64,000 bases of DNA, taken from the NCBI GenBank assembly GCA_049720475.1, contig JBNASH010000036.1, positions 1,339-65,338 on the forward strand, in the 5' to 3' direction. Position 1 is the stretch's first letter; each line of letters opens with the position of its first letter. The DNA comes from Minisyncoccia bacterium. GTDB taxonomy: Bacteria > Patescibacteriota > Minisyncoccia > UBA6257 > JAAZHW01. This document shows, in pieces, positions 16,809 to 46,959 of this stretch. The translations under genes were made by a program, and so were the position numbers. A model generated the notes under the pieces. It was not told the DNA's origin. It saw only the letters and a list, made by a program, of their open reading frames with translations, and ran no database searches.

Positions 16809-17562
16809 TTTAATAATTATTATTCTTGTTTTAATTTTGTTCCAATTTCAATTTGTTTCAGCAGCAACCGAATCAAAGAGCTTTTTTGAGGGCTTGAGGT
16901 TGTTTTTTCTCAAAATCATTAAGGGGGTAGATTATTGGGTTAACGGCCTTATTAAATACAAAGATCTCCAAGAAGAGAACAATCTTTTAATTTTTCAAAA
17001 CCGAGCCTTAAAATCGCTTTTAATTGAATATCAAGATTTGAAATCAGAAAATGAACTTTTAAAAGAAGCCCTGCAATTAAAAAAATCAAAAAATTTTAAT
17101 TTTGTTTTAGCAAATGTTGTTGGCCGTTCGCCATTAAATTTTTCTCAAACATTTATTATTGATAAAGGAGAGGAGGATGGGATTAAAGTTGGTCAAATAG
17201 TTGTGTGGGGAGGAAAAACATTAGTGGGTGAAATCATAAATGTTTCTAAGAGTTTCAGTACCGTTAGAGCCATTACTGATTCGGATTTTAAAGCAGCAGT
17301 TTTTGTTGGCGAAAATAAAGAGGAAGGACTTTTTAATGGTAATGATTTTTTGCCGCCTCGTGTTGATTTGATTCCTCTTAAAGCGCAAATTAATGAAGGT
17401 GATATTGTTTATACTTCCGGATTGGATAATAAGTTCATTAAGAATTTATATGTTGGAGAGGTAAAAGAAATAATTAAATCACCTGGAAAAATTTTTCAAG
17501 AGATAAAAGTAGAGCCAGCTATTGATTGGACAAAGTTGTATCAAGTTTTAGTTATTATCTAA
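16786..17562 (+). CDS. mreC: rod-shape determining protein MreC
   Basis: N-terminal TM, coiled-coil, then beta-rich domain VVGRSPLNFSQTFIIDKGEEDGIKVGQIV; synteny mreB-mreC-mreD-PBP2. Confidence 0.7.
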   Translation: MNHKQKNSLIIIILVLILFQFQFVSAATESKSFFEGLRLFFLKIIKGVDYWVNGLIKYKDLQEENNLLIFQNRALKSLLIEYQDLKSENELLKEALQLKKSKNFNFVLANVVGRSPLNFSQTFIIDKGEEDGIKVGQIVVWGGKTLVGEIINVSKSFSTVRAITDSDFKAAVFVGENKEEGLFNGNDFLPPRVDLIPLKAQINEGDIVYTSGLDNKFIKNLYVGEVKEIIKSPGKIFQEIKVEPAIDWTKLYQVLVII

Positions 17563-17563
17563 A

Positions 17564-18085
17564 ATGAAAAAGAATATCAATAATTTTTTAAAAATAATTC
17601 TTTTTGGATTTTTTATTGGCATTCTCGCTTTATTACAGATAACCTTTATTAATTGGTTTGATATTTTTGGAGTAAAAATAAATCTTGTTTTAATTGGTAT
17701 TTTAGCTAATATTTTTAATCCGAGTTGGCCTTTGATTTTGGTTGGGACTTTTATTGGTGGTTTGGTATATGATTTTACAAGTTTATTTAACTTTACTTAT
17801 ACAATTAGTTTTTTAATTTTGGTATTATTGTTTCGATTCTTGGGAAGAAAATATTTAGTAGAAAAACATCTTTTTTTAAATTTTTTCTTTGGTTTTTTGG
17901 GCACTATTATTTTCAATTTTCTTTATGTCTCCATTAATTATTTCTTTTTCCGAAATAACTTCTTTGGTTATTTTTTGAGTTGGAATCATCTTTTGGAAAT
18001 TGGAATTAATGCTTTTCTTGTTTTTCTTTTAGGTTTGATTGGAGAAGCTTTTAAAATAACATTAAAAATAATTAGAAAACAATGA
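17564..18085 (+). CDS. mreD: MreD-like polytopic membrane protein
   Basis: About 170 aa, 4-5 hydrophobic helices, position between mreC and PBP2. Confidence 0.45.
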   Translation: MKKNINNFLKIILFGFFIGILALLQITFINWFDIFGVKINLVLIGILANIFNPSWPLILVGTFIGGLVYDFTSLFNFTYTISFLILVLLFRFLGRKYLVEKHLFLNFFFGFLGTIIFNFLYVSINYFFFRNNFFGYFLSWNHLLEIGINAFLVFLLGLIGEAFKITLKIIRKQ

Positions 18086-20010
18086 GGCTAAATTTCAAAA
18101 AAAATAAAAAAATAAAAAGAAAAAGCGATTTTTTGGAAGCGGAAGAAATTTTGTTTAATAAAGAGGCGCTGTCTAAATTAAGTGATTTAGAAGAGGTGCA
18201 AAGGCTGGAATTAGATATTGGCCGCTGGGGTTTGGATTTATTATTGATTTTTTTTGTTTTGTTTTTGGTTTTTGCTCTTAGTTGGGTTTTTGTTTTGAAT
18301 ATTTCCAAGGGGAAAGAATTAAAATTAGCCGCCCAACAAAATGCGATGACTTCTATTCCTATTATTGCTAATAGAGGTTTAATTTTTGATAAATTTAATA
18401 AGGAATTGGTTTATAATCAAGAAGTTTTTGATTTGGTTCTTTTCCCTGTTTATTTGCCGGTTGATAAAACAGAAAGGACAGAAATTTTAGAGAAAATCAG
18501 ACAAGATAAAGATATTGCTGCTTCATTAGCGGAAGAAAAATTAGAAGAAAATAAAAATTTAGAACCAATTGTTTTAAAAGCTGATTTAACACGAGAAGAG
18601 GCAATAAAATATGAGAGTTATTTTGCCAATATTCCAGCTATTCAAGTAATGAAACAAAACTTAAGGCAATATACAAATAGTTTTGCTTTTAGCCATGTTT
18701 TAGGCTATACCGGCCGTTTATCAAAGGAAGATATACAGCAAAAAATTTACTATCCCTCATTTATGAAAATTGGTAAGAGCGGTTTGGAAGCATTTTATGA
18801 AGATTATTTAAAGGGAGAAAATGGTGAAATAAGAATTTTAAGAAATGCTGTAATGGAAATTCTTAATCAAGGAGTAGTTAAAGAGCCGGTCGATGGTAAT
18901 AATTTATATTTAACAATCGACGCTGATCTTCAAGAATATAGTTATAATCGTTTAGCAAAACAAATAAAAAGCTTGGGCACAAAACCCAGAGGAGGCGTGG
19001 TGATTGTAACTAATCCCAATTCCGGTGAAATCCTCTCTTTAGTTAGTTATCCTGGCTATGATACTAATCTTTTTTCAAAAGGTATTAGTATTGAAGAATT
19101 TCAGAAATTAGTTAATGATAGCAGCAAACCATTATTTAATCGAGCGATTTTGGGAATGTACAATCCAGGTTCAACTATTAAGCCTATTATGGCCACGGCG
19201 GCTTTGGCAGAGAAGATCATAGATCCTTATCAAAAGATTGAAACGCATGGTTATATTACTATCCCGAATCCTTATTTTCCTGATAAACCTTCTATTTTTG
19301 TTGATTGGCGCAATAATGGTTATGTGAATATGATTGATGCAATTGCACGTTCAAGTAATGTTTATTTTTATATCATTGGTGGCGGCTATCAACAATATCA
19401 AGGGTTGGGAATTGAAAAAATAAAAAAATATTTAGAAGAATTTCAATTTAATTCCATTACAGGAATTGATTTGCCATCCGAAAAAATCGGCTATATTCCC
19501 GACGAAAAAAGCAAAAATCCTTGGCGAATAGGTGATACTTATAATGTTTCAATCGGACAGGGTGATCTAACAGTAACCCCTATCCGTCTTATTACCAGTT
19601 TAAACTCTTTGATTAACGGGGGTCGTTTATTAAGGCCTTATCTTGTTGATCACATTAGCGCCAATAATAATCAAATCGTTTTACAAAACAATCCCCAAGT
19701 TATTAAAGATAACTTTCTTAACCCCGATGATTTAAAGATTGTAAAAGAGGGGATGGGCCAAACAGTCAAAAGTGTTATGGGAACAGCGCATTTGTTAGCT
19801 GATTTGCCGTTTAGCGTTGGCGGTAAAAGTGGTAGTGCTCAAACTACTGGTAACACAAAAATAAATGCTTTATTTTATGGCTTTGCGCCATTTGAAAATC
19901 CAAAAATTTCAATTTTAGTTTTGATTGAGGATGTTCCAGAGGGTTCGTTGAATGCTATTCCAGTAGTAAAAGATATTTTATTGTGGTATTATAAAAATAG
20001 AGGATTTTAG
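18082..20010 (+). CDS. mrdA: penicillin-binding protein 2 (elongasome transpeptidase)
   Basis: Transpeptidase motifs STIKP (SxxK), SSN, KSGS(A) (KTG-like); N-terminal TM and dimerisation domain. Confidence 0.8.
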   Translation: MRLNFKKNKKIKRKSDFLEAEEILFNKEALSKLSDLEEVQRLELDIGRWGLDLLLIFFVLFLVFALSWVFVLNISKGKELKLAAQQNAMTSIPIIANRGLIFDKFNKELVYNQEVFDLVLFPVYLPVDKTERTEILEKIRQDKDIAASLAEEKLEENKNLEPIVLKADLTREEAIKYESYFANIPAIQVMKQNLRQYTNSFAFSHVLGYTGRLSKEDIQQKIYYPSFMKIGKSGLEAFYEDYLKGENGEIRILRNAVMEILNQGVVKEPVDGNNLYLTIDADLQEYSYNRLAKQIKSLGTKPRGGVVIVTNPNSGEILSLVSYPGYDTNLFSKGISIEEFQKLVNDSSKPLFNRAILGMYNPGSTIKPIMATAALAEKIIDPYQKIETHGYITIPNPYFPDKPSIFVDWRNNGYVNMIDAIARSSNVYFYIIGGGYQQYQGLGIEKIKKYLEEFQFNSITGIDLPSEKIGYIPDEKSKNPWRIGDTYNVSIGQGDLTVTPIRLITSLNSLINGGRLLRPYLVDHISANNNQIVLQNNPQVIKDNFLNPDDLKIVKEGMGQTVKSVMGTAHLLADLPFSVGGKSGSAQTTGNTKINALFYGFAPFENPKISILVLIEDVPEGSLNAIPVVKDILLWYYKNRGF

Positions 20011-23254: not shown

Positions 23255-24040
23255 TTGATGTTTGCTACCAATCTTAATACCTACCGCTTAAGACAAATTC
23301 AAAAAAGGCGTCAGAAAAAAAAGCGTTTATTAGTAATGTCTTTCATTTTTTTATTTTTAATAGCCGCGTGGGCCTTTATTTTCTATTCTAAAATTTTCTT
23401 TTTTGAAAAATTAATAATTACCAACAATAATTTAGCTTCAATTGGGGATATTTATAAAAAATTTCAGGAAATTAATCATAATCGAAGATTATTCCAAGTT
23501 TTTAGTTTGGCTAACAATCTTCTTTTTTGGAACAATGATTCGTGTGATAAAATTGGGGAAGCCTCACTGGCGATAGAAAGCATAAATTGCCAAAAGAATT
23601 TTTTAAATAAAACGATAAAAATTTTAGTGAAAGAAAGAGAGCCGCTGTTTTTGTTTTATGATGAGGGATCGAAACAATATTTTTATTTAGATAAAGAGGG
23701 AGTGCTTTTTTATTCAATAAATGAAAACAATGCAAAAAACCTAATTTTAATTTATAACAAAAGCAGCAATATTTATCATTTAGGCGATAAATTAACGATT
23801 GATCTCGAAAAGGTTAAGGATTTAGCGACAGTTATTCAAAAAAATTTTAACTTTAGATATTTTGAATTAGAAAATCAGGATATTGTTGCGGTGTGTGATA
23901 AAGGATTTAGAATTTTAATTAGCCTTAATAAATTATTGGAAACAACGAAATTCATTCCTAAATTATTCGAAAGTAATTTTGAGCTAAATAATTTAGAGTA
24001 TTTAGATTTGAGGTTTTTGCCAAAAATTTATTACAAATAG
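23255..24040 (+). CDS. hypothetical bitopic membrane protein (FtsQ/DivIB-like topology, unconfirmed)
   Basis: Basic cytoplasmic N-terminus RLRQIQKRRQKKKR, single TM, extracytoplasmic domain; no confident motif. Confidence 0.3.
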   Translation: MMFATNLNTYRLRQIQKRRQKKKRLLVMSFIFLFLIAAWAFIFYSKIFFFEKLIITNNNLASIGDIYKKFQEINHNRRLFQVFSLANNLLFWNNDSCDKIGEASLAIESINCQKNFLNKTIKILVKEREPLFLFYDEGSKQYFYLDKEGVLFYSINENNAKNLILIYNKSSNIYHLGDKLTIDLEKVKDLATVIQKNFNFRYFELENQDIVAVCDKGFRILISLNKLLETTKFIPKLFESNFELNNLEYLDLRFLPKIYYK

Positions 24041-24043: not shown

Positions 24044-24769
24044 TTAGCGCGCCACTGTCAGGCCGATGATTTTTGCAGCGCCGTTATTTTTTAAAACTTT
24101 CGCCGCTTCTTGAAGGGTGGCGCCAGAGGTGAAAACATCATCAACAAGAATTACTTTTTGTTTATAGATTAAATCTGGATTTGTTATAGAAAATATATTC
24201 TCGATGTTTTTATAACGTTGTTCATAACTTTCGATTTGGGCTTGAGGCGGATTGTTTACTTTACGAACTAAAACATTGTTAAAAATTTTAAGATTAAATT
24301 GAGTGGCAAAGACTTTAGCTATTTCTTCACTTTGATTAAAACCGCGTTCACAAAATTTATTCTTATGAAGGGGAACAGGAATGATGATGTAATCTTTCCA
24401 ATTTTCATTAATTGTTTTTGTTGTTTTTTCCCAAAAAATAATCAAAAATTCTCCTAAAGTTAAAGCAATTTCTTTAATATAATTATATTTAAATTGATGA
24501 ATGAGGGCTTTAACAGCCACATCTTCATAATTAGTAGCTGATCCCAAAAAATCGAGATAAGATTTTTTATTGGAATGGTGGCATTTTTTGAACTCGCTTA
24601 GTCGTTTATGACAAATAGGGCAAACGAATCCGGAAGAAATAAAGATTTTATTAAAACAATTGTCACATAAGTAACGTTTCCTTTTAGACGGAACAAAAGA
24701 TTGACAATTGACACAATAAACAGGGAAAAGACAATCAAAAATAAAATTTTTGATATCTGTGATTTTCAT
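24044..24769 (-). CDS. comFC: competence protein ComFC (phosphoribosyltransferase family)
   Basis: N-terminal double CxxC zinc finger, C-terminal PRTase motif VILVDDVFTSGATL. Confidence 0.8.
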   Translation of the reverse strand: MKITDIKNFIFDCLFPVYCVNCQSFVPSKRKRYLCDNCFNKIFISSGFVCPICHKRLSEFKKCHHSNKKSYLDFLGSATNYEDVAVKALIHQFKYNYIKEIALTLGEFLIIFWEKTTKTINENWKDYIIIPVPLHKNKFCERGFNQSEEIAKVFATQFNLKIFNNVLVRKVNNPPQAQIESYEQRYKNIENIFSITNPDLIYKQKVILVDDVFTSGATLQEAAKVLKNNGAAKIIGLTVAR

Positions 24770-24840
24770 TATTGTGGATAATTTTATTTAATATTTTATA
24801 ATTGTTTTTTATAATAGAAAAGAGATAAAGAATTCTAACT

Positions 24841-25881
24841 ATGCGTGTTTTGGGAATTGATATTGGAACAACTAATATTAAGGTGGTGGAACTATCTGAG
24901 GCAGGCGATCAGAGGGTTTTAGAGAATTATGGAATTTTAGAAACTTATGGTTATTTAGAACGTAATAACGCGACAATTCAAAGCAACTATTTTAAATTAG
25001 TTGAGGATATTACTGTTGATCTTATCAAAAAACTTTTTTTGGTTTTAAAACCAAAAACTAAAAGAGCAATTTTTTCTTTGCCGGTTTTTTCTAGTTTTAT
25101 CACCCAATTTGATTTGCCTTTTGTTGATAAAAAAGAAATTGCTAATGCCGTGATTTTTGAAGCAAAAAAATATATACCAGTTCCCTTGGATGATTTGGAG
25201 ATTAGTTGGATGTTGGTTGGTCAAATAAATGAAGGAACAAAACAGAAAAGCAGCATTGTTTTAATCGCCACCCCAAAAGAATTAATTGATAAATATAAAA
25301 GAATGGGGGAAATGTTGGGATTAAATGTGGTTGGTTGGGAGATTGAAGGAATTTCATTAGTTCGTTCATTAATAAAAGGCGATAAAAGAAATACTTTGAT
25401 TGTTGATATGGGAACGCAAATTACTAATTTTTTTATTGTTGAGAATGGTTTTTTAACAAATTACGAAACATTAAATATTGGTGGAGCCGAAATCACACAT
25501 GTTATTAGTCGTAGTATGGGCGTTACTAAAGAACGAGCCGAAGAATTTAAAAAGATAAAAGGATTTAAAGTTGATCCTCAGGAGATGGGAGTTGTTAATA
25601 TTTTAATGCCAATTGTGGATAACTTCGGCAACGAAATTTTAAGAATGATGGATATCTATCAACAGAAAACCAATAAAAAAATCGAACGAATTATTATTAC
25701 CGGCGGAGGGGCAAATATGCCAGGTTTAGTAGATTATTTCACACAATTTTTAAATATGCCGGTGGAAAAAGCGTGGCCATTTCAAGATATAAAATATGCT
25801 GATTTTCTAGAGCCTCTTTTGCGTGATGTAGCTCCATTTCTTTCTGTGGCTACCGGAGCAGCTTTAAGGGGCTTGGAATAG
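24841..25881 (+). CDS. pilM: type IV pilus assembly protein PilM (actin-like ATPase)
   Basis: VLGIDIGTTNIKVVEL, 346 aa, followed by PilN/PilO-like bitopic proteins and pilB/T/C/A/D. Confidence 0.7.
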   Translation: MRVLGIDIGTTNIKVVELSEAGDQRVLENYGILETYGYLERNNATIQSNYFKLVEDITVDLIKKLFLVLKPKTKRAIFSLPVFSSFITQFDLPFVDKKEIANAVIFEAKKYIPVPLDDLEISWMLVGQINEGTKQKSSIVLIATPKELIDKYKRMGEMLGLNVVGWEIEGISLVRSLIKGDKRNTLIVDMGTQITNFFIVENGFLTNYETLNIGGAEITHVISRSMGVTKERAEEFKKIKGFKVDPQEMGVVNILMPIVDNFGNEILRMMDIYQQKTNKKIERIIITGGGANMPGLVDYFTQFLNMPVEKAWPFQDIKYADFLEPLLRDVAPFLSVATGAALRGLE

Positions 25882-25909
25882 CTTTTAAAAAATATTATAA
25901 TTAAAATAT

Positions 25910-26443
25910 ATGGCTGAATTTCAAAATATAGATTTATATGCTAAAAAGAAATCCAGTGGTTGGTTGGGGAAGTTATTAACCCTCTCGATTATTTTATTAA
26001 TTATTTCTTTGGGGTTATATTTTATAGCGACTTTCTATCAAAATTATTTAAATAAAAATATCAGTGATATTAATAATAAAATTAAATCTTTGAGCAATGA
26101 GATTGCTGAGGGTGATAGAAAAGAAGTGTTGAGCTTTTACTCGCAATTAATAAATTTGAAAGCATTACTAAGCAATCACATTTATACCTCAAAAATTTTT
26201 GAACGATTAGAATTAATAACTCATCCAAAAGTGGCTTTTTCTGCATTTTCTTACGATTATAAAAACAAGTCATTAAAATTAGATGGTTATTCAGATAATT
26301 TAGAATTCATCGCTCAGCAAATTTTAGCTTTTCAGAAAGTTTCAGAATTTAGCAAAATTAATTTAACAAATTTAAGAACAAGCGACAATAAAATTTCTTT
26401 CAGTCTCGAAATAACTTTTAATCCCAATTTTATTTTAAAATAA
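25910..26443 (+). CDS. pilN: PilN-like bitopic inner-membrane pilus assembly protein
   Basis: Short cytoplasmic N-terminus, single TM, coiled-coil; operon position. Confidence 0.5.
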   Translation: MAEFQNIDLYAKKKSSGWLGKLLTLSIILLIISLGLYFIATFYQNYLNKNISDINNKIKSLSNEIAEGDRKEVLSFYSQLINLKALLSNHIYTSKIFERLELITHPKVAFSAFSYDYKNKSLKLDGYSDNLEFIAQQILAFQKVSEFSKINLTNLRTSDNKISFSLEITFNPNFILK

Positions 26444-26450
26444 TTAACCT

Positions 26451-27062
26451 ATGCAAGAAACAACCAAAAGAACTTTTAGTTTAATATTGATAATCGTCTT
26501 TTTCCTAGTATCACTAATAGTGTTTTTTAACTATACATGGCCGGCTTTATTAAAAGTTTTGGATTTAAATGATGCTTTAAAAATTGTGAAAGAAGAATAC
26601 GCAAAACAGAGTAAGTCTTTACAACTCGCTAAAGAAATTATTAATCAATACAAAAATTCATCAAATATTAATCAAATGGTTTCTTTAACGCTCCCTAAAA
26701 CCGATGAATTGTTTAATGTTTTAGCACAACTGGATAAAATTTCTAATGAAAGCGGAATATTAATCCAAAGTATTACAGTAAAAACTCCTTCCTCGAGTTC
26801 AACATCTAGTTCACCTTCTTCATCAAATGTTAGTTCAGCAAGTCAGAAAGCCTCTTTGATTAATCCAGTTCAATCTATCAGTATGGAGTTGTCGATGGTT
26901 GGAACTTATGAATCTTTTAAAACGTGGTTAAATGCAATCGAAACCAACATAAGATTAATGGATATTACTTCAATTAATATTGCTGGAGTGGCTACTTCGG
27001 AGAAAACATCATCTAATTTCTTTAATCTTCGAGTCACTTTAAACGTTTATTATCAACCATAA
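26451..27062 (+). CDS. pilO: PilO-like pilus assembly protein with Ser-rich low-complexity segment
   Basis: N-terminal TM, coiled coil, SSSTSSSPSSSNVSSAS tract; operon position. Confidence 0.45.
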   Translation: MQETTKRTFSLILIIVFFLVSLIVFFNYTWPALLKVLDLNDALKIVKEEYAKQSKSLQLAKEIINQYKNSSNINQMVSLTLPKTDELFNVLAQLDKISNESGILIQSITVKTPSSSSTSSSPSSSNVSSASQKASLINPVQSISMELSMVGTYESFKTWLNAIETNIRLMDITSINIAGVATSEKTSSNFFNLRVTLNVYYQP

Positions 27063-27063
27063 T

Positions 27064-27423
27064 ATGGAAACAGTAGAACAAAAACCAAAAACTAATATTT
27101 TTATTTATATTATAGTTATTTTAATAGCTGCTATTGCTATTGTTTATTTTGTTTTCTTTGCGCCCGAAAAAATTGCTAAAAAACAAACAACTGTTACAAC
27201 TGTTAATGTGGCAACAGAAGAAACAGGAGGGGTCGCATCTTCAAAAGGCGTCGTGTCAAAACCTAGTACCACTTCAACTTCAGATGTTACGGGAGGTTTA
27301 AGTGGTTTAAAATTAACGCCTGAAGAAATTATAAATAATCCAATTTTTCAGTCCTTGCATTCTTATACAGAATCGGTAGAATTGCCCAATTTGGGTCGTC
27401 CTAACCCATTTATTCCTTATTAA
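27064..27423 (+). CDS. small bitopic membrane protein of unknown function inside the pil operon (PilP-like position)
   Basis: 119 aa, N-terminal TM, Thr/Ser/Val-rich linker, C-terminal NPFIPY. Confidence 0.3.
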   Translation: METVEQKPKTNIFIYIIVILIAAIAIVYFVFFAPEKIAKKQTTVTTVNVATEETGGVASSKGVVSKPSTTSTSDVTGGLSGLKLTPEEIINNPIFQSLHSYTESVELPNLGRPNPFIPY

Positions 27424-27434
27424 TTTTAATTACA

Positions 27435-29195
27435 ATGATTCCAAACAAAAACTTTCTTGATTTATTGGTTAAGAATAACAAGATCAACCAAGAACTGGCT
27501 GATCGTTTATTAAAAGAAAGTCAAAATTTGAATCGTAATGTTGAGGATTTAATTTATGAACGGAATCTCGTTTCTGATCTAGAAATAGCCAAAATTAAAA
27601 GTGAATATTATAAAATCCCATTAAAGACTTTTACTAAAGATGAAGTAATTCCTAACGAGGTTTTAAATATTATTCCGGAAGAAGTTTCTCGTACTCATAA
27701 AATTATTGCCTTTAAAAAGGAAAAGGATACTTTATATGTCGGCATGCTTTACCCAGATGATTTAAAGGCGCAAGATATTTTAAAGTTTATTGCCAAACAG
27801 AAAAAATTAAATATCGCCATCTATCTTATTACTAAAAGCGATTTAGAGAATTTGTGGAAACATTATCGTTCGTTTGCTATCCGCTTAAAAGAAATTCAAG
27901 ATAGCGTAGAAATATTTAAGAGACAAGCGAAAACCACTCACCAATTATATCAACAAAAAATTATTAGAATTGATGAGGCGAGTGGTGTTATTGCCGAAGA
28001 AGCGCCGGTAATCAAAATTGTTTCAACTATCTTAGAGGAAGGCGTTAATTCCAATGCTTCTGATATTCATATTGAACCAATGAGAAATCGATTGAGAGTT
28101 CGTTTTAGATTGGATGGCGATTTAAAAGAAATTATGAGTTTGCCTTTGGAATTGCAACCACCTATCATTGCCCGTATTAAAATTTTATCTGATTTAAAAA
28201 TCGATGAGACGCGAATACCACAGGATGGACGCTTTCGTACTTTAATAGATAATAAAGAAGTAGATTTTCGTGTTTCAACTTTGCCGACGGCATTGGGCGA
28301 AAAAGTAGCCATTCGTATTTTGAACCCATATGTTGGATTAAAAACAATTGAAGGATTGGGCGTTAAGGATTATCACCAAAAATTAATTTTGGAAGGAATT
28401 GAAAAACCATTTGGTATGATTCTTGTCACTGGTCCAACGGGTTCTGGTAAAACCACAACTCTTTATGCCGTTCTTCAGAAATTAAACCAAGAAGATATTA
28501 ACATTGTTAGTTTGGAAGATCCGGTAGAGTATTTTATTGAAGGATTAAATCAATCGCAGGTGAAACCAGAAATTGGTTATACTTTTGCTTCGGGATTAAG
28601 ACAAATTGTTCGTCAAGACCCCGATGTTATTATGGTAGGTGAGATTCGTGATAATGAAACCGCTGAGTTAGCAGTGCACGCTGCTTTAACCGGTCATCTA
28701 GTACTTTCAACTTTACATACTAATAATGCTATAGGTGTTATTCCACGTTTAATTGATATGAAAATTGAACCTTATTTATTGCCAGCCTCATTAATTTTAA
28801 TGGTGGCCCAACGTTTAGTGGGAAAATTATGTGATAATTGTAAGCAGAAAGTTGAAGCAACCGGCCTTCTTAAAGAAGAAATTGAAAAGACAGTTGCTTC
28901 ATTGCCAGCAGACTTACAGAAGAAATATAAAAAAGATAAATACGAAATTTATCTACCCCAAGGTTGTAAAGAATGCAATTTTAAAGGTGTTAAAGGCAGA
29001 ATACCTATTTTTGAAATTTTAAAGATGACCCCATCATTAGAGCAGGTTATTTTAACCAACCCCTCAGAGGCTAACCTTAAAGCAGAAGCGGAAAAACAAG
29101 GAATGGTTAGTTTACGGCAAGACGGAATCATTAAAGCTTTAGAGGGCGTTGTTTCGATAGACGAAGTTCTTAAAGAAACAGTGAAATTGGAATAA
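27435..29195 (+). CDS. pilB: type IV pilus extension ATPase PilB (copy 2)
   Basis: Walker A GPTGSGKTTTLYA, Asp/His boxes, CDNC...CKEC zinc motif; N-terminal region FLDLLVKNNKINQELADRLLKESQ loosely resembles the start of an MshEN-type motif. Confidence 0.85.
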   Translation: MIPNKNFLDLLVKNNKINQELADRLLKESQNLNRNVEDLIYERNLVSDLEIAKIKSEYYKIPLKTFTKDEVIPNEVLNIIPEEVSRTHKIIAFKKEKDTLYVGMLYPDDLKAQDILKFIAKQKKLNIAIYLITKSDLENLWKHYRSFAIRLKEIQDSVEIFKRQAKTTHQLYQQKIIRIDEASGVIAEEAPVIKIVSTILEEGVNSNASDIHIEPMRNRLRVRFRLDGDLKEIMSLPLELQPPIIARIKILSDLKIDETRIPQDGRFRTLIDNKEVDFRVSTLPTALGEKVAIRILNPYVGLKTIEGLGVKDYHQKLILEGIEKPFGMILVTGPTGSGKTTTLYAVLQKLNQEDINIVSLEDPVEYFIEGLNQSQVKPEIGYTFASGLRQIVRQDPDVIMVGEIRDNETAELAVHAALTGHLVLSTLHTNNAIGVIPRLIDMKIEPYLLPASLILMVAQRLVGKLCDNCKQKVEATGLLKEEIEKTVASLPADLQKKYKKDKYEIYLPQGCKECNFKGVKGRIPIFEILKMTPSLEQVILTNPSEANLKAEAEKQGMVSLRQDGIIKALEGVVSIDEVLKETVKLE

Positions 29196-29225
29196 AATCT
29201 AAATTGGTTTATAATTAATAAAAAT

Positions 29226-30299
29226 ATGGATCTATTTTATAAAGACAAATTAGAACAACTTTTAACTCTTACCGCGCAAGAGAATGCTTCTGATTTGCAT
29301 TTTTCAGTTGGTCGAAAGCCGACCCTAAGAATTGATGGTCGTCTCGTGCCTATTGTTAAAGAAGAAGTATATACAAAAGATATTGTTGCTGGATTAATCG
29401 ATGCTTTGCTTCCAGCAGAAAAAAAAGAAGAATTTCTTAAAAACCGGGAAATTGATTTTTCTTATACTTTATCTGATAAAGCTCGTTTTCGGGTTAATGT
29501 TTATTTCCAGAGAGGCAATATGGCTGCTTCTCTAAGATTTATTCCTTATAAAATTAGAACTATTGAAGAATTAAATTTGCCACCGGTACTGCATGATTTT
29601 ACAAAATATACCCAAGGATTTGTTTTGGTGGTTGGTCCAGCAGGTCATGGTAAATCAACAACACTTGCTGCTTTAATTGATGAAATTAATCATAAAAGAA
29701 CCTCCCATATTATTACAATTGAAGATCCAATCGAGTATGTTTTTATTCAAGATCGCTCGATTATTGATCAAAGAGAGGTTTATAGCGATACTTTAAGTTT
29801 TCATCGCGCTTTGCGATCAGTTTTGAGACAAGACCCCGATGTAATTATGGTTGGAGAGATGCGCGACCCCGAAACTATTCAAACAGCTATTACTGCTGCT
29901 GAAACGGGGCATTTAGTTTTTTCTACTCTTCATACCAATTCTGCCTCTCAAACAATAGATCGTATTATTGATAGTTTTCCGGCTTCGCAGCAAGCCCAAA
30001 TCAGAACTCAATTAGCTTCAACTTTGGTAGGTATTGTTTCTCAAAGATTGGTACCCCGATTAAATGGCGGTCGCATTCCCGCTTGTGAAGTAATGATTAC
30101 CAATTCAGCCATTCGTAATTTAATCAGAGATGATAAGGTTTATCAGATTGATTTAGTAATTGAAACAAGTATCCAAGAAAAGATGATTTCTTTAAATCGT
30201 TCATTGGCCACCCTTGTTAAACAAAGCGAAATTTCTTTAGAGACGGCCCAAGCATATTCATTAAATCCGGCCGAGTTAGCTAATCTTTTAGCTCGATAA
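29226..30299 (+). CDS. pilT: twitching motility retraction ATPase PilT
   Basis: About 357 aa, Walker A GPAGHGKSTTLAALI, no GspE N-domain, AIRNLIRD C-terminal motif. Confidence 0.85.
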   Translation: MDLFYKDKLEQLLTLTAQENASDLHFSVGRKPTLRIDGRLVPIVKEEVYTKDIVAGLIDALLPAEKKEEFLKNREIDFSYTLSDKARFRVNVYFQRGNMAASLRFIPYKIRTIEELNLPPVLHDFTKYTQGFVLVVGPAGHGKSTTLAALIDEINHKRTSHIITIEDPIEYVFIQDRSIIDQREVYSDTLSFHRALRSVLRQDPDVIMVGEMRDPETIQTAITAAETGHLVFSTLHTNSASQTIDRIIDSFPASQQAQIRTQLASTLVGIVSQRLVPRLNGGRIPACEVMITNSAIRNLIRDDKVYQIDLVIETSIQEKMISLNRSLATLVKQSEISLETAQAYSLNPAELANLLAR

Positions 30300-30303
30300 A
30301 ACT

Positions 30304-31515
30304 ATGGCTAAATTTAGATATACAGGAAGAAATGAATTGGGAGAAATTCAAAGCGGTGTGGTTGAGGCTGGCAATCGCGATTTAGCCGTTAGAGTTTTGC
30401 AGGATAATAAAATTTATGTTCTTTCGATTGAATCTTTGGAAAAGAAAGGATTTTTTGAAGATTTACTAAGAAGTTTTCGGAAAGTCAAAATTAAAAATTT
30501 AATGATTTTTACAAGACAGTTAAGCACTTTGCTTTCCGCCAAAGTTCAATTGATAGACGCTCTTAAAACTTTATATAACCAAATTAACGATCCAATTTTA
30601 AAAGATGCTATTTTTGATGTTTTTACTGATGTAGAAGGCGGACTATATCTTTCTCAGGCCCTTTCAAAACACCCAAAAGTTTTCTCCGATTTTTATATTA
30701 ACATGATTAAGTCGGCAGAATTGTCAGGTCGATTGGAAGAAACACTAAATTATTTAGCTGATTATTTAGAAAAGGAAAATAAATTAAGCAGCAAATTTAG
30801 AAATGCTTTAATATATCCTATATTTATTTTAGTTGTTTTCTTGGCTGTTTTAATTTTAGTGGTAACGGTAGTTATTCCTCAATTAAAAGGCGTTTTTGTT
30901 GAGGCGAATGTAAAACTCCCATTTCTTACTCGGTTTTTATTAAATATTGGCGATTTTATTTTGAATTGGGGTGTGGGGTTAATTCTTTTTTTTGGCGTAG
31001 CAATTTTCTTATTTATTAGATATTTAAGAACAGAAGAGGGCAAAAGATTTTGGCAGCAAACTACTCTTTCTATTCCTATTTTGGGAGGGATTATTAAAAA
31101 AGTTGCTTTGAGTCGTTTTGCGTCCTCTTGTAGCGCTTTGATTAAAGGAGGATTGCCAATTGCTAATTCTTTAGAGATTTCAGGAAAAATTACCACTAAT
31201 ATTGTTTATGAAAAAATTCTTATGAATACAGCCGAAGCTGTTAGAACAGGCTCAACCATTTCTCAGTATCTTGCTCAATATCCTGATTATTTTCCGCCGA
31301 TGGTTATTCAGATGATTTCGGTTGGTGAAGCTTCTGGAAGGGTAGAGGATTTATTAACAAGAGTGGCGGATTTTTACAGCAATGAAGTAGATCAAACAGT
31401 AGGTAATATTGCCGAAATTATCCAACCAATATTGATTATTGCTCTGGGCATTTTTATGGGTTTGTTTATTGCTGCCGTTCTTTTGCCGATTTATAATTTA
31501 GCCCAGGTCTTTTAA
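30304..31515 (+). CDS. pilC: type IV pilus platform protein PilC (GspF family)
   Basis: Two GspF repeats with 3 TM helices, about 400 aa. Confidence 0.8.
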   Translation: MAKFRYTGRNELGEIQSGVVEAGNRDLAVRVLQDNKIYVLSIESLEKKGFFEDLLRSFRKVKIKNLMIFTRQLSTLLSAKVQLIDALKTLYNQINDPILKDAIFDVFTDVEGGLYLSQALSKHPKVFSDFYINMIKSAELSGRLEETLNYLADYLEKENKLSSKFRNALIYPIFILVVFLAVLILVVTVVIPQLKGVFVEANVKLPFLTRFLLNIGDFILNWGVGLILFFGVAIFLFIRYLRTEEGKRFWQQTTLSIPILGGIIKKVALSRFASSCSALIKGGLPIANSLEISGKITTNIVYEKILMNTAEAVRTGSTISQYLAQYPDYFPPMVIQMISVGEASGRVEDLLTRVADFYSNEVDQTVGNIAEIIQPILIIALGIFMGLFIAAVLLPIYNLAQVF

Positions 31516-31578
31516 ATCGAATTTTAATATTATAAAATAAATAAATAAAAGGTCGATTTATTAATAAAAAACAATTCA

Positions 31579-32028
31579 ATGCGTAATAAAAACAAAGGTT
31601 TTACTTTAATCGAAATGCTCGTCGTTATAGCTGTCATTGGTTTGTTGGCTGCTTTGATTTTGGTTGGTTTATCAAGTTTTAGAACTCGAGGTCGTGATAC
31701 AAGAAGAATTGCTGATTTAAAAGAAGTGCAGAATGGTTTAGAGGTGTACTATATGAAAAATGGTACTTACCCCACTGGTATAAATACGTGGACTGATTTG
31801 GAAAACGCTTTAACTAGTGCCGGCATTGGAATTACAAGCATTCCTAAAGATCCAACCAATGGTAGTCCCTATCAATATGTTTATGGAGTTGATGGAACGG
31901 GTCAGCATTATGTTATTGGCGCAACCATTGAGGATCCAGATGCCAATACTTCATTATTGCAAAATGATTTAGATGGAACTGTTTATAATGTTTCTTGCGA
32001 TGACCCTGTTTATTGTATAGGAATGTAA
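31579..32028 (+). CDS. pilA: type IV major pilin
   Basis: Class III signal KGFTLIEMLVVIAVIGLLAA (G-F-T-L-I-E prepilin cleavage/methylation site), C-terminal Cys pair. Confidence 0.8.
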   Translation: MRNKNKGFTLIEMLVVIAVIGLLAALILVGLSSFRTRGRDTRRIADLKEVQNGLEVYYMKNGTYPTGINTWTDLENALTSAGIGITSIPKDPTNGSPYQYVYGVDGTGQHYVIGATIEDPDANTSLLQNDLDGTVYNVSCDDPVYCIGM

Positions 32029-32047
32029 AAGGAAAATTAGGGATGTT

Positions 32048-32962
32048 ATGGTAGAAATCATTTTGTCAGTGATTCTATTTTTAATCGGGTTGGGAGTGGG
32101 GAGTTTTATTAATGTCATAACAACTCGCTTCCAGCCCGATTCTCATATTAAATTTTCTCAATTAGTCAGCGGTCGCTCCCGCTGTCCTTTTTGCTTCCAT
32201 CAATTAAAATGGTATGATTTGATACCTATTTTTAGTTTTGTTTTTCTTCGAGGAAAATGTCGTTATTGTAAAAATAAAATTTCTTACCAATATCCAATCG
32301 TTGAATTTTTAACGGCAGTAATTTTTCTAGGTTTATTTTTAAAAATTTATAATTTAACGCCGGTACGATTAGCTTTGGCGCAACAAATATATTCTTGGCC
32401 GGTAATTTTATTATTAAGTTTTGCTATTTATTTATCAATTTTAATAATTTTATCCATTATTGATCTTAAATATTATCTTTTGCCCGATAACTATATTTTG
32501 TTTGGTGTTGTTTTGGCTTTTTTATTTAACGCATTTTTTTATTGGATTAATCAAAATCCCCATAACAATTTTTTTACTTGCGGGATTAATTTCTTAGGTT
32601 CCTATATTGATTATTTTAATTGCCAAATTCCTTTTTGGTTATCACCAATTTTAGGAGCGATTTTTACCAGCGGCTTTTTATTTTTAATTTATCTTTTTAG
32701 TCGAGGCAAAGGAATGGGTTTTGGCGATGTAAAATTGGGTATTTTTATTGGATTAATTTTGGGTTTGACGAATAGTATTTTGGCTTTAGTCATTGCCTTT
32801 ATTTTTGGTTCAATTGCTGGTATAATACTTTTAGTAGCCAAAAAAAGAACTTTAAAATCAATGGTTCCTTTTGGCCCTTTTTTGGCTTTAGGTGTTTTAA
32901 TAACAATTTTTTTCGGTTCGAATTTAATAGACTTATATTTAGCTCTTTTTAATATTTTTTAA
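32048..32962 (+). CDS. pilD: prepilin peptidase PilD (A24 family) with N-terminal zinc-binding domain
   Basis: CPFC...CRYC tetra-Cys motif, polytopic membrane, GFGDVKL active-site Asp region. Confidence 0.75.
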   Translation: MVEIILSVILFLIGLGVGSFINVITTRFQPDSHIKFSQLVSGRSRCPFCFHQLKWYDLIPIFSFVFLRGKCRYCKNKISYQYPIVEFLTAVIFLGLFLKIYNLTPVRLALAQQIYSWPVILLLSFAIYLSILIILSIIDLKYYLLPDNYILFGVVLAFLFNAFFYWINQNPHNNFFTCGINFLGSYIDYFNCQIPFWLSPILGAIFTSGFLFLIYLFSRGKGMGFGDVKLGIFIGLILGLTNSILALVIAFIFGSIAGIILLVAKKRTLKSMVPFGPFLALGVLITIFFGSNLIDLYLALFNIF

Positions 32963-32966: not shown

Positions 32967-33434
32967 ATGAGAGACGTAATGATTTCAAATTCGTTATATT
33001 GGGGCGCTATTTCTTTTATGGCAGTACTTTTTGTCGCAACGGTAATTTTAAATAGCTATCTTTTTATGTTGGACAATCAATTAACACAAGAAGTTTATTT
33101 ATCTCGAATTCAAGCTAATAAAGCTCGATTAATTATTCAGTATGATAGTAAGAATAAAAGAGTTTTTGAAGGAGATGTGATAGGAGGACAATTAAGTTTA
33201 TATGATATTCTTGTTTTATCTTCTCGAGCGGGCAATTTACAAGTCGAATTTTCTAAATCACCCGATGGCCGAGTGACTCTTTCTAAAATCGAGAATTTTG
33301 CTAATAATGAAAAGCATTACTGGGAAATGAGGTTGCCGAATTTAAACTGGTCTAAATCACTAAATGGTTCAGATGTTGATTTAACAAGAATTTTTGTTAA
33401 TGGCGGAACAACCGTCCATCTTATTTACAGATAA
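32967..33434 (+). CDS. hypothetical membrane-anchored protein downstream of pilD
   Basis: 155 aa, one N-terminal hydrophobic helix, no pilin cleavage motif. Confidence 0.3.
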   Translation: MRDVMISNSLYWGAISFMAVLFVATVILNSYLFMLDNQLTQEVYLSRIQANKARLIIQYDSKNKRVFEGDVIGGQLSLYDILVLSSRAGNLQVEFSKSPDGRVTLSKIENFANNEKHYWEMRLPNLNWSKSLNGSDVDLTRIFVNGGTTVHLIYR

Positions 33435-41220: not shown

Positions 41221-41271
41221 AAAATTGTTCGCTTCAAACTCTAAATTTTTAGAAAAAATTATATTTCCTCA

Positions 41272-41303
41272 TCGGCGCTTCGCGCCGAAGCCCAGCCTGT
41301 TTT
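41272..41303 (+). terminator. GC hairpin (tcggcgc-ttc-gcgccga) followed by T-run, possible tRNA-Gln terminator
   Basis: 7-bp perfect GC stem, ttttt about 10 nt downstream. Confidence 0.3.
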
Positions 41304-41564
41304 TAACCCGTGGATTAAATTTTGGTAAGATGATAAAGAAAATTGGCGATAGGGTAATTTCTACAACCAGATTAGAAAATTTCAGTTTTCTCCCTTGCTC
41401 GAACAGAATAGAAAGGAAAAAGTTTCAGTAAAAGTAATTCTTGCCCCGTTCTCGCTTTTTTCATCTGTTTCAGGGGTCCGCCCCGCCGATTGTATTCTTT
41501 GCTTTCTCAAAAATTTTTGTTATCATTATAAGAGATTAAGAAAGTTTTGTATCTATTACTTTGA

Positions 41565-41583
41565 TTGTAGTAATATACTACAA
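41565..41583 (+). promoter_or_regulatory. perfect 19-bp palindrome TTGTAGTAATATACTACAA overlapping the XRE start codon (candidate autoregulatory operator)
   Basis: Perfect dyad symmetry; overlaps putative -10 (taatat) and ATG at 41583. Confidence 0.45.
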
Positions 41584-41795
41584 TGAAGTTTAACAATAAA
41601 TCAACAATCGCCGAAAACATAAAGAAATATCGCCAGAAAATGGGTATTTCTCAAGATAGGCTTTCAAAATTAGCCGATGTCACCTATAACACGATTATTA
41701 AAATCGAATCGGGAGCAAACAAAAACCCGACTATTGAAACATTGGCAAAAATCGCCAAAGCGTTAGGCGTTGGAGTAGATGATTTAATAAAATAA
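41583..41795 (+). CDS. XRE-family (Cro/C1-type) helix-turn-helix transcriptional regulator
   Basis: 70 aa; MGISQDRLSKLADVTYNTIIKIESG...PTIETLAKIAKALGV typical HTH_3. Confidence 0.8.
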   Translation: MKFNNKSTIAENIKKYRQKMGISQDRLSKLADVTYNTIIKIESGANKNPTIETLAKIAKALGVGVDDLIK

Positions 41796-41817
41796 TAATT
41801 TTAGTTAATAATTTTTT

Positions 41818-46919: not shown

Positions 46920-46922
46920 TCA

Positions 46923-46955
46923 CGGGACGGAAGAACATTCTGTCCCGTTTTTTTT
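46923..46955 (+). terminator. rho-independent terminator
   Basis: cgggacgg-aagaacatt-ctgtcccg stem followed by 8 T. Confidence 0.7.
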
Positions 46956-46959
46956 ATTT

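Follow-up and report, generated by a model that had tools for sequence, protein, structure and literature searches.

The segment 24044-32962 of the 64,000-nucleotide stretch of DNA analyzed here (the window) is very probably the core, well-conserved type IV pilus (T4P) locus of a Minisyncoccia bacterium (Parcubacteria, CPR/Patescibacteria), and it appears to encode a secretin-less, T4aP-like, retractile machine. Its gene order, comF on the minus strand followed by pilM-pilN-pilO-orf119-pilB1-pilT-pilC-pilA-pilD on the plus strand (Table 1), was obtained by checking ORF coordinates and strands and by Pfam and NCBIfam assignments, which confirmed the pil gene map, the T4P cluster with a PilT retraction ATPase and the divergent comFC upstream of pilM, all proposed in a first-pass annotation. 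That annotation also called the operon complete; the core genes are indeed present, but the term is overstated, since there is one prepilin gene in the 64 kb, with no minor pilin genes, and comEC, comEA and dprA are absent from the window. T4P and com genes have already been documented in CPR bacteria. Three features may be new: the divergent comF-pilM pairing, which is found in 41 of 59 evaluable related metagenomic loci, the orf119 family of small membrane proteins with a terminal G(R/K)xNPFxP motif, and a conserved neighbourhood around the second pilB gene, with a beta-propeller gene upstream and ruvB downstream.

Table 1. Features of the window, in order of position.
Feature	Position	Strand	Description
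GGDEF diguanylate cyclase	18-557	+	GGDEF E=4e-41; RKSD I-site and intact GGDEF motif
orf482	575-2023	+	membrane-anchored beta-sandwich plus beta-propeller; directly 5' of pilB2
pilB2	2064-3743	+	ancient PilB/GspE-family paralogue, putative separate transcription unit; T2SSE 403 bits
LTD surface protein	5247-6563	+	signal peptide, two LTD domains, C-terminal TM anchor; LTD E=3e-36
comF (ComF/ComFC family)	24044-24769	-	Cys-rich zinc ribbon at the N-terminus, followed by a type I phosphoribosyltransferase fold; transcribed divergently to pilM
comF-pilM intergenic region	24770-24840		71 bp; two overlapping promoter-like sites facing pilM
pilM	24841-25881	+	actin-like cytoplasmic alignment protein
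pilN	25910-26443	+	bitopic, one N-terminal TM segment; position kept in relatives
pilO	26451-27062	+	bitopic, one N-terminal TM segment; position kept in relatives
orf119	27064-27423	+	small conserved membrane protein: TM helix, Ser/Thr-rich linker, C-terminal GRPNPFIPY
pilB1	27435-29195	+	operon-linked extension ATPase; T2SSE 431 bits plus MshEN
pilT	29226-30299	+	retraction ATPase; TIGR01420 449 bits, above 319 cutoff
pilC	30304-31515	+	platform protein; two T2SSF stretches, E=4e-61; NCBIfam GspF and PilC matches
pilA	31579-32028	+	prepilin; N_methyl E=5.7e-10
pilD	32048-32962	+	prepilin peptidase / N-methylase; A24_N_bact E=2.8e-30 plus Peptidase_A24
orf155	32967-33434	+	single-TM protein directly 3' of pilD

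Gene content of the pilus locus

All catalytic motifs of the locus proteins are intact. PilM matched Pfam PilM_2 over its full length (E=1e-35) and TIGR01175 at 157.4 bits (cutoff 133), PilO scored 23.0 bits against Pfam PilO (cutoff 22), and PilN gave a weak match to Pfam PilN (E=6.9e-4) that, at 20.1 bits, lies below the gathering score of 22.8. The top NCBIfam match of PilB1 was PilB (551 bits) and its top PDB sequence matches were PilB of M. xanthus and Geobacter; it carries the Walker A, Asp box, Walker B, His box and tetra-Cys motifs. PilT, with the AIRNLIRD signature at residue 295, is the most conserved operon protein in relatives (56-98% identity). The PilA leader, MRNKNKG/FTLIE with Glu5 and cleavage between G and FTLIE, is the only class-III signal motif in a six-frame scan of the window, and the protein has a C-terminal Cys140/Cys146 pair. 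PilD has the motifs CxxC..CxxC, IIDLKYYLLPD and GFGDVK.

The cluster could alternatively be read as a T2SS-like pseudopilus that secretes proteins and forms no surface pilus, in keeping with the top NCBIfam matches of PilC (GspF), PilA (GspG) and PilB2 (GspE) and with a further match of the pilin to Pfam T2SSG. We consider this very unlikely, because the PilT is bona fide and above its family cutoff, PilB1 scores highest as PilB, PilM/N/O are found rather than GspL/M/C while a secretin is absent, and in Saccharibacteria imaging has shown pili that genetic work links to the homologous loci (PMC9894109, PMC11623550).

For orf119 we found no Pfam family and no PDB sequence match, and a single-sequence search of 1.84 billion representative proteins returned only 19 matches. 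In 25 related loci pilB is immediately preceded by an ORF of 80-126 aa that shares the architecture and the terminal motif of orf119. The E. coli PilP homologue HofP carries RDPFKPP beside its lipid anchor, resembling the orf119 terminus, and orf119 is possibly a minimal PilP-like adaptor. Similarly, PilW of Thermus is a lineage-specific protein in the PilP position after pilO (PMC13039148); however, Thermus is bounded by an outer membrane and has a secretin, and its PilW, of 292 aa, includes a domain that binds the secretin, whereas orf119 has 119 aa and no detected folded domain and is followed by pilB.

The order orf261-comF-pilMNO-orf119-pilBTCAD-orf155-folD-murJ-lepA was found entire in two relatives (L001 and L012), and a sequence scan revealed no terminator delimiting the putative pil operon. 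orf155, which had no Pfam match, is kept after pilD only in these close relatives (45% identity in L001 and 61% in L012), and it is uncertain whether it belongs to the pilus unit.

Divergent pairing of comF and pilM

The comF product scored 34.9 bits against Pfam Pribosyltran (cutoff 26.3) and 29 bits against DZR_2 (cutoff 27), and its top NCBIfam match was TIGR00201 ComF (E=3.6e-29), although under the curated cutoff (102 versus 233.55 bits), followed by GntX. An alignment with relatives shows invariant Cys residues and the VDDVFTSGAT loop. An AF2 model (pLDDT 92.6) had H. pylori ComF (7P0H) as its top PDB match (E=1.3e-8, 232 columns), and structure comparison also found similarity to the PRT domains of PurF and ShosT. 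The NCBI annotation reads 'ComF family protein' but calls it at 167 aa only.

The promoter-like sites facing pilM are TGGATA-16-TATAAT (24775-24802) and TTAATA-16-TATAAT (24788-24815), such sites showing overall no enrichment over shuffles in the whole scan. The corresponding regions of relatives are also short (median about 56 bp), and many have a TGnTATAAT box immediately 5' of pilM. Among the 32 long loci, 19 have pilM, pilB, pilT and pilC all upstream of comF, and the divergent pairing with pilM is still seen at ComF identities as low as about 32%.

Proposed working of the pilus and its link to DNA uptake

In the machine that we propose, PilD would cut the PilA prepilin before FTLIE, and PilB1 would dock on the PilC platform, which PilM-PilN-PilO would hold in place, and polymerize the pilin, which PilT would depolymerize for retraction. 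orf119 would add a small membrane component that probably binds the ectodomains of PilN/O. The lack of PilQ and of a canonical PilP would follow from an envelope devoid of an outer membrane. Since the comF-pilM divergence is kept across the clade, which strengthens the link between pilus and DNA uptake, the two are most likely coupled: retraction would draw in DNA as far as the surface, ssDNA would be imported by a ComEC encoded elsewhere, and ComF would handle it. Twitching and host attachment would be further functions of this pilus, as has been shown experimentally in Saccharibacteria; twitching and host association are driven by T4P (PMC9894109). In CPR genomes the T4P genes lie together, there is no PilQ, and 86% of genomes have ComEC (PMC6744442), and natural transformation of Saccharibacteria requires comEC (PMC10633639). 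With comEC, comEA, dprA and minor pilin genes absent from the window, the completeness of the DNA-uptake pathway is not demonstrable for this genome.

A pilus used for host attachment and twitching only is possible though unlikely, with comF adjacent through frozen synteny or serving another role, such as that of a phosphoribosyltransferase-fold protein of nucleotide salvage or signalling; the resemblance of the fold to PurF and ShosT would fit the latter. In Saccharibacteria the T4P is essential, whereas comEC, comF and dprA are dispensable for fitness (PMC10633639), and T4P-2 mutants retain full, normal competence (PMC11623550), so that pilus and competence can be uncoupled. Gene order is moreover generally well kept in these genomes, folD-murJ-lepA being linked too, and pilM is not adjacent to comF in 18 of the 59 related loci (31%). 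On the other hand, comF is the sole minus-strand ORF of at least 90 aa in 9674-64000 outside longer plus-strand ORFs, and yet its pairing with pilM endures between distant relatives. Its best structural match, H. pylori ComF, acts in ssDNA handling in transformation according to work cited in PMC10633639, and in E. coli the comF homologue gntX and hofMNOPQ are annotated as 'DNA utilization' proteins. We favour coupling to DNA uptake.

Comparison with known systems

One of the closest parallels is Saccharibacteria T4P locus one (TM7x_00415-00475 of N. lyticus; T4P1 of S. epibionticum), which has the same single cluster of PilC/B/T/M/N/O/D and pilin genes (PMC11623550, PMC10633639), listed in TM7x as PilC1/B1/T/M1/N1/O1/D plus pilins (PMC11623550). 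Both are secretin-free loci of CPR genomes, and in both a second PilB lies elsewhere beside recombination genes, RecA/RecX there (PMC11623550) and RuvB here. The present locus nevertheless belongs to another CPR class, has one pilin gene rather than five, and has comF divergently paired with pilM, a pairing of which we found no statement in the papers cited here; its second PilB is, within the window, an orphan without PilC2 or PilM2N2O2 beside it.

In E. coli and Haemophilus, PilM/N/O/P-type genes (hofMNOPQ and comABCDE) are likewise functionally grouped with a ComF-family protein (gntX/comF) for DNA uptake. Unlike here, these systems are diderm; they have a secretin (HofQ/ComE) and a full PilP, and the genes for their ATPase, platform and pilin are located at other sites. 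In E. coli the 10-kb hofM region does not contain gntX, so that the two genes are not neighbours, while Haemophilus comF presumably lies in or beside the comA-E operon. Thermus thermophilus (PilF, PilMNO-PilW-PilQ) uses one T4aP-type machine for both pili and natural transformation. The Gram-positive Com pseudopilus (ComGA-GG, ComC) with ComFA/ComFC is, like the present system, monoderm-type and secretin-free with a ComFC protein, and the ComGA, ComGB and ComGC NCBIfam models match PilB, PilC and PilA here, at lower scores. It lacks PilT and PilMNO, however, while its ComFA helicase was not seen here, and by score the proteins of the locus fit the PilB, PilT and PilM families better.

Age of the two pilB genes

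The second pilB gene proposed beside the GGDEF gene was borne out by Pfam, and NCBIfam gave GspE (491 bits) ahead of PilB (469 bits). Its proposed origin by recent duplication or gene conversion was not. Over their whole length pilB1 and pilB2 share 53.6% DNA and 42% protein identity, the former equal to a codon null made by back-translating both proteins with the codon usage of the window (0.532+-0.007, P=0.29). The sequences that had been called near-identical, 3120-3270 and 28570-28720, are only 25.8% identical in that register; the correct in-frame register (offset 25461, 3120-3270 against 28581-28731) gives 80.8%. In a tree, PilB1 and PilB2 formed two separate, reciprocally monophyletic clades with 100% bootstrap each, and one other contig (L064) also has both paralogues. 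The depth inside each clade (0.82-0.86) approaches the B1-B2 distance (1.15), and every PilB2 orthologue, over a graded range of 50-90% identity, is nearer to PilB2 than PilB1 is. The two genes are thus ancient paralogues.

Their nucleotide likeness is confined to the catalytic core, where the best 150-nt segment reaches 0.813 (null 0.745+-0.023) and 28 nt covering the Walker B motif VGEIRDNET form the longest exact run (null 15+-3.3), both with P~0.001. This local excess is what speaks for recent duplicates or copies being homogenised by gene conversion, together with the run being exact solely between the two pilB copies of the window, a Val GTA codon unique to them, and a Glu codon that is GAG in this pilB1, as in B2 copies, but GAA in the aligned B1 orthologues of L001, L002 and L012. 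Yet the core shows no more synonymous similarity inside this genome than across genomes: over 60 codons, identical residues share identical codons at 30/48 positions here, compared with 27/48 between L012 PilB1 and the PilB2 of the window (Fisher p=0.68) and 25/47 in a second cross-genome comparison (p=0.47). Flanking the run is, moreover, a Met/Leu codon that distinguishes B1 from B2, which limits any conversion tract to at most 28 nt, embedded in sequence that is otherwise probably too diverged for homologous recombination. Recent duplication is already refuted, and we find homogenisation unlikely in the extreme; the core likeness reflects protein conservation and codon bias, the run being at most micro-conversion, or chance.

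Surroundings of pilB2

The LTD surface protein had been counted as part of the pilus module. It is present, with hydrophobic segments at its N- and C-terminus, but its membership is unsupported. Its gene is part of a distinct pilB2-ruvB-LTD neighbourhood that is itself conserved, an LTD gene following ruvB in L010 and L095. Apart from LTD, Pfam revealed no domain of a nuclease or DNA-binding type in this protein, and even for the nuclease ExeM the role of the LTD was left open (PMC6085458). pilB2 would form its own unit, GGDEF gene - beta-propeller protein gene - pilB2 - terminator, adjoining ruvB and the LTD gene, consistent with an intrinsic terminator hairpin directly 3' of pilB2 (about 3765-3795). 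The AF2 model of orf482 (pLDDT 87.6, pTM 0.81) gave generic WD40-like propeller matches only against the PDB, and an orf482-like gene (480-490 aa) precedes pilB2 in four of seven contexts; orf482 and PilB2 are each 100% identical to an NCBI Minisyncoccia MAG protein. The GGDEF ORF has no in-frame stop before position 18 and probably extends a few codons past the left edge of the window, and in L008 and L009 the same position is taken by a stand-alone GGDEF gene (194-203 aa).

The type IV pilus gene cluster is a secretin-less variant

Few conserved features of the CPR/Patescibacteria are documented as well as T4P and com genes, and the locus itself matters little. According to Meheust et al. 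2019 (PMC6744442), many CPR genomes have the genes for PilB, PilT, PilC, PilM, PilN, PilO, pilins and PilD grouped together; PilQ is missing, 86% of CPR genomes encode ComEC, and both DprA and ComFC are widely distributed. Experiments in Saccharibacteria have shown natural transformation that depends on comEC, and have shown T4P to be essential (Wang et al. 2023, PMC10633639). Twitching and host binding were also tied to T4P there, and two loci were described, locus one with the parts found here and another in which a second PilB is encoded beside recA/recX (Xie et al. 2022, PMC9894109; Grossman et al. 2024, PMC11623550). Pilus and comEC genes are also expressed in enrichment transcriptomes of Paceibacterales/Minisyncoccia (PMC10936435). 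The candidates for novelty are modestly useful by-products of our analysis: the divergent comF-pilM pairing, the orf119 family and the neighbourhood shared by the second pilB and ruvB.

The first-pass annotation had described a complete pilus operon here, and its gene identities, coordinates, strands and motifs were borne out. Neighbouring genes of the comF-pilD cluster lie 1-63 bp apart, and a scan for promoters and terminators found no enrichment over shuffled sequences.

Genes of the comF-pilD cluster and the evidence for each
Gene	Position in window	Strand	Evidence
comF	24044-24769	minus	ORF map, Pfam/NCBIfam
pilM	24841-25881	plus	ORF map, Pfam/NCBIfam
pilN	25910-26443	plus	ORF map, Pfam/NCBIfam
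pilO	26451-27062	plus	ORF map, Pfam/NCBIfam
orf119 (119-aa ORF)	27064-27423	plus	ORF map
pilB1	27435-29195	plus	ORF map, Pfam/NCBIfam
pilT	29226-30299	plus	ORF map, Pfam/NCBIfam
pilC	30304-31515	plus	ORF map, Pfam/NCBIfam
pilA	31579-32028	plus	ORF map, Pfam/NCBIfam
pilD	32048-32962	plus	ORF map, Pfam/NCBIfam

As judged from their sequences, PilB, PilT, PilC, PilM-PilN-PilO, the prepilin and PilD are predicted components of a type IVa pilus machinery. The operon-linked PilB1 carries a Walker A motif (GPTGSGKTT), an Asp box (EDPVEY), Walker B (VRQDPDVIMVGEIR), a His box (TGHLVLSTLHT) and a tetra-Cys site (CDNC..CKEC); PilB2, the product of the second pilB, also has all five types of motif intact. 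PilB1 matched T2SSE in Pfam at 431 bits, its top PDB sequence matches were PilB, and its best NCBIfam family was PilB at 551 bits, under the equivalog cutoff of 675.65. PilT exceeded its cutoff (TIGR01420, 449.3 bits against 319.1) and reads AIRNLIRD at residue 295 where the signature tested was AIRNLIRE, while PilC contains PF00482 (T2SSF) in two stretches (E=4.2e-61). PilM scored above its curated NCBIfam cutoff, PilO marginally over and PilN marginally under the Pfam gathering score; PilN and PilO are both bitopic with one N-terminal TM segment each, and their gene order is kept in relatives. PilA has a class III leader (MRNKNKG/FTLIE), an N-methylation motif and a C-terminal Cys pair, and PilD has both catalytic-Asp motifs (IIDLKYYLLPD and GFGDVK) and both A24 domains, including the A24 N-terminal domain.

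The word complete, however, overstated the case. Neither the operon nor the 64-kb window contains an ORF for the secretin PilQ or the lipoprotein PilP, as expected for CPR (PMC6744442), and the locus is thus a secretin-less variant rather than a canonical diderm T4aP. A minor pilin set was likewise absent, since a search of all six frames of the 64 kb returned a single [GAS][FM..][TS]L.E motif at a plausible N-terminal position; minor pilins must be encoded elsewhere or be too divergent for detection. Two adjacent pilA-like genes occur in some relatives. The associated view of the locus as a pilus and DNA-uptake module is plausible and already known for CPR, but the 64-kb window holds no comEC, comEA or dprA.

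ComF is divergently paired with pilM across the clade

NCBI names the gene at 24044-24769 a 'ComF family protein'. Its product has an N-terminal Cys4-type zinc finger (Pfam DZR_2, 29 bits against a threshold of 27), with cysteines C18, C21, C34, C37, C49, C52 and C62 invariant in an alignment of 18 sequences, and a type I phosphoribosyltransferase (PRT) domain (PF00156, 34.9 bits against 26.3) with the PRPP loop VILVDDVFTSGAT. Against TIGR00201 it scored 102.1 bits, under the cutoff of 233.55, yet this was still the best-scoring family (E=3.6e-29). A sequence search of the PDB gave no match, so a fold search was needed: the best PDB match of the AF2 model (pLDDT 92.6) was H. pylori ComF (7P0H, E=1.3e-8, 232 columns, TMq 0.58), which spans nearly the full length of the protein and lies more than three orders of magnitude ahead of other PDB chains, the next matches being PRT domains only (E>=2.6e-5). 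The whole protein is thus predicted to fold like the solved ComF structure, and the family assignment holds on the zinc finger, the PRT fold and the modelled overall fold, at a score below the curated cutoff. The NCBI protein (P0125) has only 167 aa and is without the zinc-ribbon domain; this public call is probably truncated at its N-terminus, because the 241-aa ORF fits both the length of the homologues and their invariant cysteines.

The full gene order (orf261, comF on the minus strand, then pilM, pilN, pilO, orf119, pilB, pilT, pilC, pilA, pilD, orf155, folD, murJ and lepA) recurs in the related loci L001 and L012. We surveyed 80 metagenomic loci with ComF relatives at 31-56% identity, which were fetched using the ComF alignment. 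Of these loci, 59 extended 1.3 kb or more beyond comF on its upstream side, and pilM was divergently adjacent to comF in 41 of them; 32 extended 6.5 kb or more, and 19 of those had pilM, pilB, pilT and pilC in the same order. From position 9674 to the end of the window, comF is the sole minus-strand ORF of at least 90 aa that does not lie inside a longer ORF on the plus strand. We found no explicit description of this divergent pairing in the literature searched, and it provides a clade-wide genomic signal of coupling between the pilus and DNA uptake in the Paceibacteria/Minisyncoccia, lineages with almost no genetics.

The comF-pilM intergenic region is short in relatives (median about 56 bp), and many such regions have a TGnTATAAT-like box near the pilM start; beyond these -10-like boxes no shared operator was seen in them. 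In many relatives (among loci L012-L091; compare 24770-24840 in the window) this extended -10 box ends about 7-25 nt ahead of the pilM start codon, and such proximity points to pilM transcripts with a very short leader or none.

The orf119 family is a candidate for a PilP-like contact

An orf119-like ORF of 80-126 aa lies immediately 5′ of pilB in 25 related loci (L001, L002 and others among L012-L091), and orf119 is thus a genuine gene under conservation. All these ORFs have a common architecture, in which a basic N-terminus precedes a single TM helix and a variable linker leads to the conserved terminal G(R/K)xNPFxP(F/Y). When the family was searched against PDB profiles and, at E up to 10, against Pfam, TM-helix noise was the sole outcome. 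A single-sequence search of 1.84 billion representatives gave only 19 matches, which indicates that the family evolves fast. No description of it was found in the literature searched; novel TM families in pilB/pilC/pilM contexts in Patescibacteria are included in a catalogue of unknown gene families (Nature 2023, PMC10849945), and orf119 may be among them.

The defining features of PilP are a lipoprotein anchor, a PilN/O-binding peptide at the N-terminus and a secretin-binding beta-sandwich (HR) domain at the C-terminus. The orf119 product is not a member of the PilP family by these features: it matched neither Pfam PilP nor any PDB entry, a TM helix replaces the lipobox, and 119 aa leave no room for an HR domain. 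What the two have in common is only an (R/K)x(D/N)PFxP motif and the place after pilO, a position held in diderms by PilP, or by PilW in Thermus (PMC13039148). In E. coli HofP, a PilP homologue, RDPFKPP stands right after the lipid anchor. This motif and the post-pilO position suggest that the orf119 product may act like the PilN/O-binding N-terminal part of PilP, the secretin-binding domain having been lost with the secretin. Such a 'minimal PilP' would consist of a membrane anchor and a C-terminal G(R/K)xNPFxP peptide plugging into PilN/O, and could be a remnant of PilP after the loss of the outer membrane and secretin. The family is thus a concrete, testable candidate for a PilP-like contact in a secretin-less machine.

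The two pilB genes are old paralogues

Domain searches also bore out the other three genes named in the first-pass annotation: a second pilB at 2064-3743, a GGDEF gene at 18-557 and, at 5247-6563, one for a protein with two LTD domains. The first-pass annotation had proposed recent duplication or gene conversion of pilB from a near-identical stretch, 3120-3270 against 28570-28720. In that register identity is only 25.8%; the proper in-frame offset of 25461 gives 80.8%, and over the whole genes identity is 53.6% for DNA and 42% for protein. We back-translated both PilB proteins with the codon usage of the window 1000 times, and the overall DNA identity matched this null (0.532±0.007, P=0.29). 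A local excess was nevertheless present, both in the best 150-nt window (0.813 against 0.745±0.023, P~0.001) and in the longest exact run (28 nt against 15±3.3, P~0.001), and the earlier reading had therefore caught something real in the Walker B/His-box core.

A distance-based, bootstrapped tree of 16 operon-linked PilB1 sequences, 14 PilB2 sequences and five non-CPR PilBs, with PilT as outgroup, recovered PilB1 and PilB2 as reciprocally monophyletic clades with 100% bootstrap each. Their internal depth (0.82-0.86) approaches the distance between them (1.15), and both genes are present on the related contig L064. As a synonymous control we counted identical codons at identical residues over the 60-codon catalytic core: the two window copies had 30 of 48, and comparisons across genomes gave 27/48 for L012 PilB1 against window PilB2 (p=0.68) and 25/47 for L001 PilB1 against window PilB2. 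Window PilB1 and its L012 orthologue are 100% identical in protein over this core, yet only 34 of 59 codons are common to them, so synonymous sites are saturated even between close genomes. Shared AT-rich codon bias thus sets a high floor for nucleotide identity. The two fully supported clades and the synonymous controls refute a recent duplication, and together they argue against ongoing homogenisation.

A conversion tract of at most 28 nt could account for the exact run GTAGGTGAGATTCGTGATAATGAAAC.. at 28617-28644 and 3156-3183, which is exact only between the two copies in the window. Inside it, the orthologues of both paralogues show 2-4 synonymous differences, its Val GTA is unique to both window copies, and its Glu codon is GAG in window pilB1 against GAA in the pilB1 orthologues compared (L012, L001 and L002). 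A Met/Leu codon that distinguishes B1 from B2 bounds the run, and the surrounding sequence is about 54% identical; chance is at least as likely an origin as such a micro-conversion. High identity over Walker B/His-box motifs in AT-rich genomes should accordingly not be read as recent duplication.

PilB2 and the adjacent orf482 protein match proteins of an NCBI 'Minisyncoccia bacterium' MAG at 100% identity, on a contig of 156,698 bp. Among species-representative genomes, the nearest PilB1 relatives were Parcubacteria/Patescibacteria MAGs, at 77% and 54%. Many PilB-family proteins of Moranbacteria/Parcubacteria (P0018-P0094), with strong scores and many of them partial, have 700-980 aa compared with 560 here, and these may contain inteins or be fused.

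The second pilB has its own neighbourhood with ruvB

A strong intrinsic terminator follows pilB2 at about 3765-3795 (AAAACCGCCC-TTATA-GGGGGCGGTTTT), and thus GGDEF, orf482 (575-2023) and pilB2 form a separate unit. With this terminator begins a 497-bp ORF-free gap (3744-4240), in a window where genes lie a median of 9 bp apart, and the gap matched no Rfam family. Beyond the terminator lies a comparatively GC-rich stretch (about 3800-4000) with two short blocks conserved in the related locus L008, and L008, L010 and L095 likewise have a gap in this position, of 212-450 bp.

We compared seven pilB2 contexts (from L008-L011, L064, L093-L095 and window 18-6563). ruvB lay downstream of pilB2 in six of the seven, an orf482-like gene of 480-490 aa upstream in four and an LTD protein after ruvB in three, while close relatives also have a stand-alone GGDEF gene upstream; in L064, pilB2-ruvB directly abuts comF-pilM. 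No description of this neighbourhood was found in the literature searched. It echoes the second T4P locus of Saccharibacteria, which is linked there to RecA/RecX. In a combination that we consider rather improbable, the orf119 family would be an undescribed clade-wide T4P component, the minimal PilP, and pilB2 would encode a second extension motor, under separate regulation, for the single PilC/PilMNO platform. On this reading the second motor, whose conserved partners are the upstream surface beta-propeller, the GGDEF cyclase in close relatives, the downstream ruvB and, in some genomes, the LTD protein, might be dedicated to a pilus for DNA uptake and have a genomic tie to recombination. The conserved neighbourhood points to where the function of the second motor should be sought.

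The AF2-type model of orf482 is confident (pLDDT 87.6) and predicts a TM anchor, a beta-sandwich and a beta-propeller; the fold search returned generic WD40-like propellers only, which gave no functional assignment. In the GGDEF protein both the active site and the I-site are intact. The c-di-GMP-binding MshEN domain is marked by a motif pair, RLGxx(L/V/I)(L/V/I)xxG(L/V/I)(L/V/I)xxxxLxxxLxxQ. The N-terminus of PilB1 aligns with Geobacter PilB, but NVEDLIYERNL replaces RLGSILIKNGL, and PilB2 gave a weak MshEN match (19.1 against 23.1 bits) and has no N-terminal helices. The key residues of the motif are thus absent from both proteins, which argues against canonical MshEN receptors and leaves a direct link of the canonical kind from GGDEF to PilB unsupported.

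The LTD protein had been counted as part of the DNA-uptake module. Its occurrence after ruvB in three of the seven contexts places it in the pilB2-ruvB neighbourhood, and nothing ties it to DNA uptake; we rejected a role as a DNA-binding or nuclease component, for which neither its domains nor the literature gave support, and work on the nuclease ExeM does not settle what LTD does either (PMC6085458).

Genomic setting

The window has a GC content of 32.7%, and the rest of it is core genome (polA, murA, two mreB, mreCD, PBP2, aminoacyl-tRNA synthetases, lepA, prfB, ftsEX, tuf and ribosomal proteins). Two single-TM proteins flank the pilus module, orf261 (23255-24040) before comF and orf155 (32967-33434) after pilD, at positions kept only in the closest relatives (L001 and L012). 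Pfam searches with orf261, orf155 and orf482 (E up to 5) gave nothing credible; orf261 has an FtsQ-like topology, for which Pfam gives no support. Further large ORF-free gaps lie at 41221-41817 (597 bp) and 46920-47711 (792 bp), where Rfam (E<=0.1) gave only a chance miRNA-like hairpin at 47005-47076 on the minus strand. Over the window and its large gaps, Rfam found just three tRNAs, and the sub-threshold miRNA-like matches correspond to the pilB2 terminator hairpin. Two MreB paralogues lie within one 6-kb stretch (10966-11973 and 15756-16808), and the second is followed by mreC, mreD and a gene for a PBP2-like transpeptidase (16786-20010), which gives this ultra-small genome a full rod-shape module.
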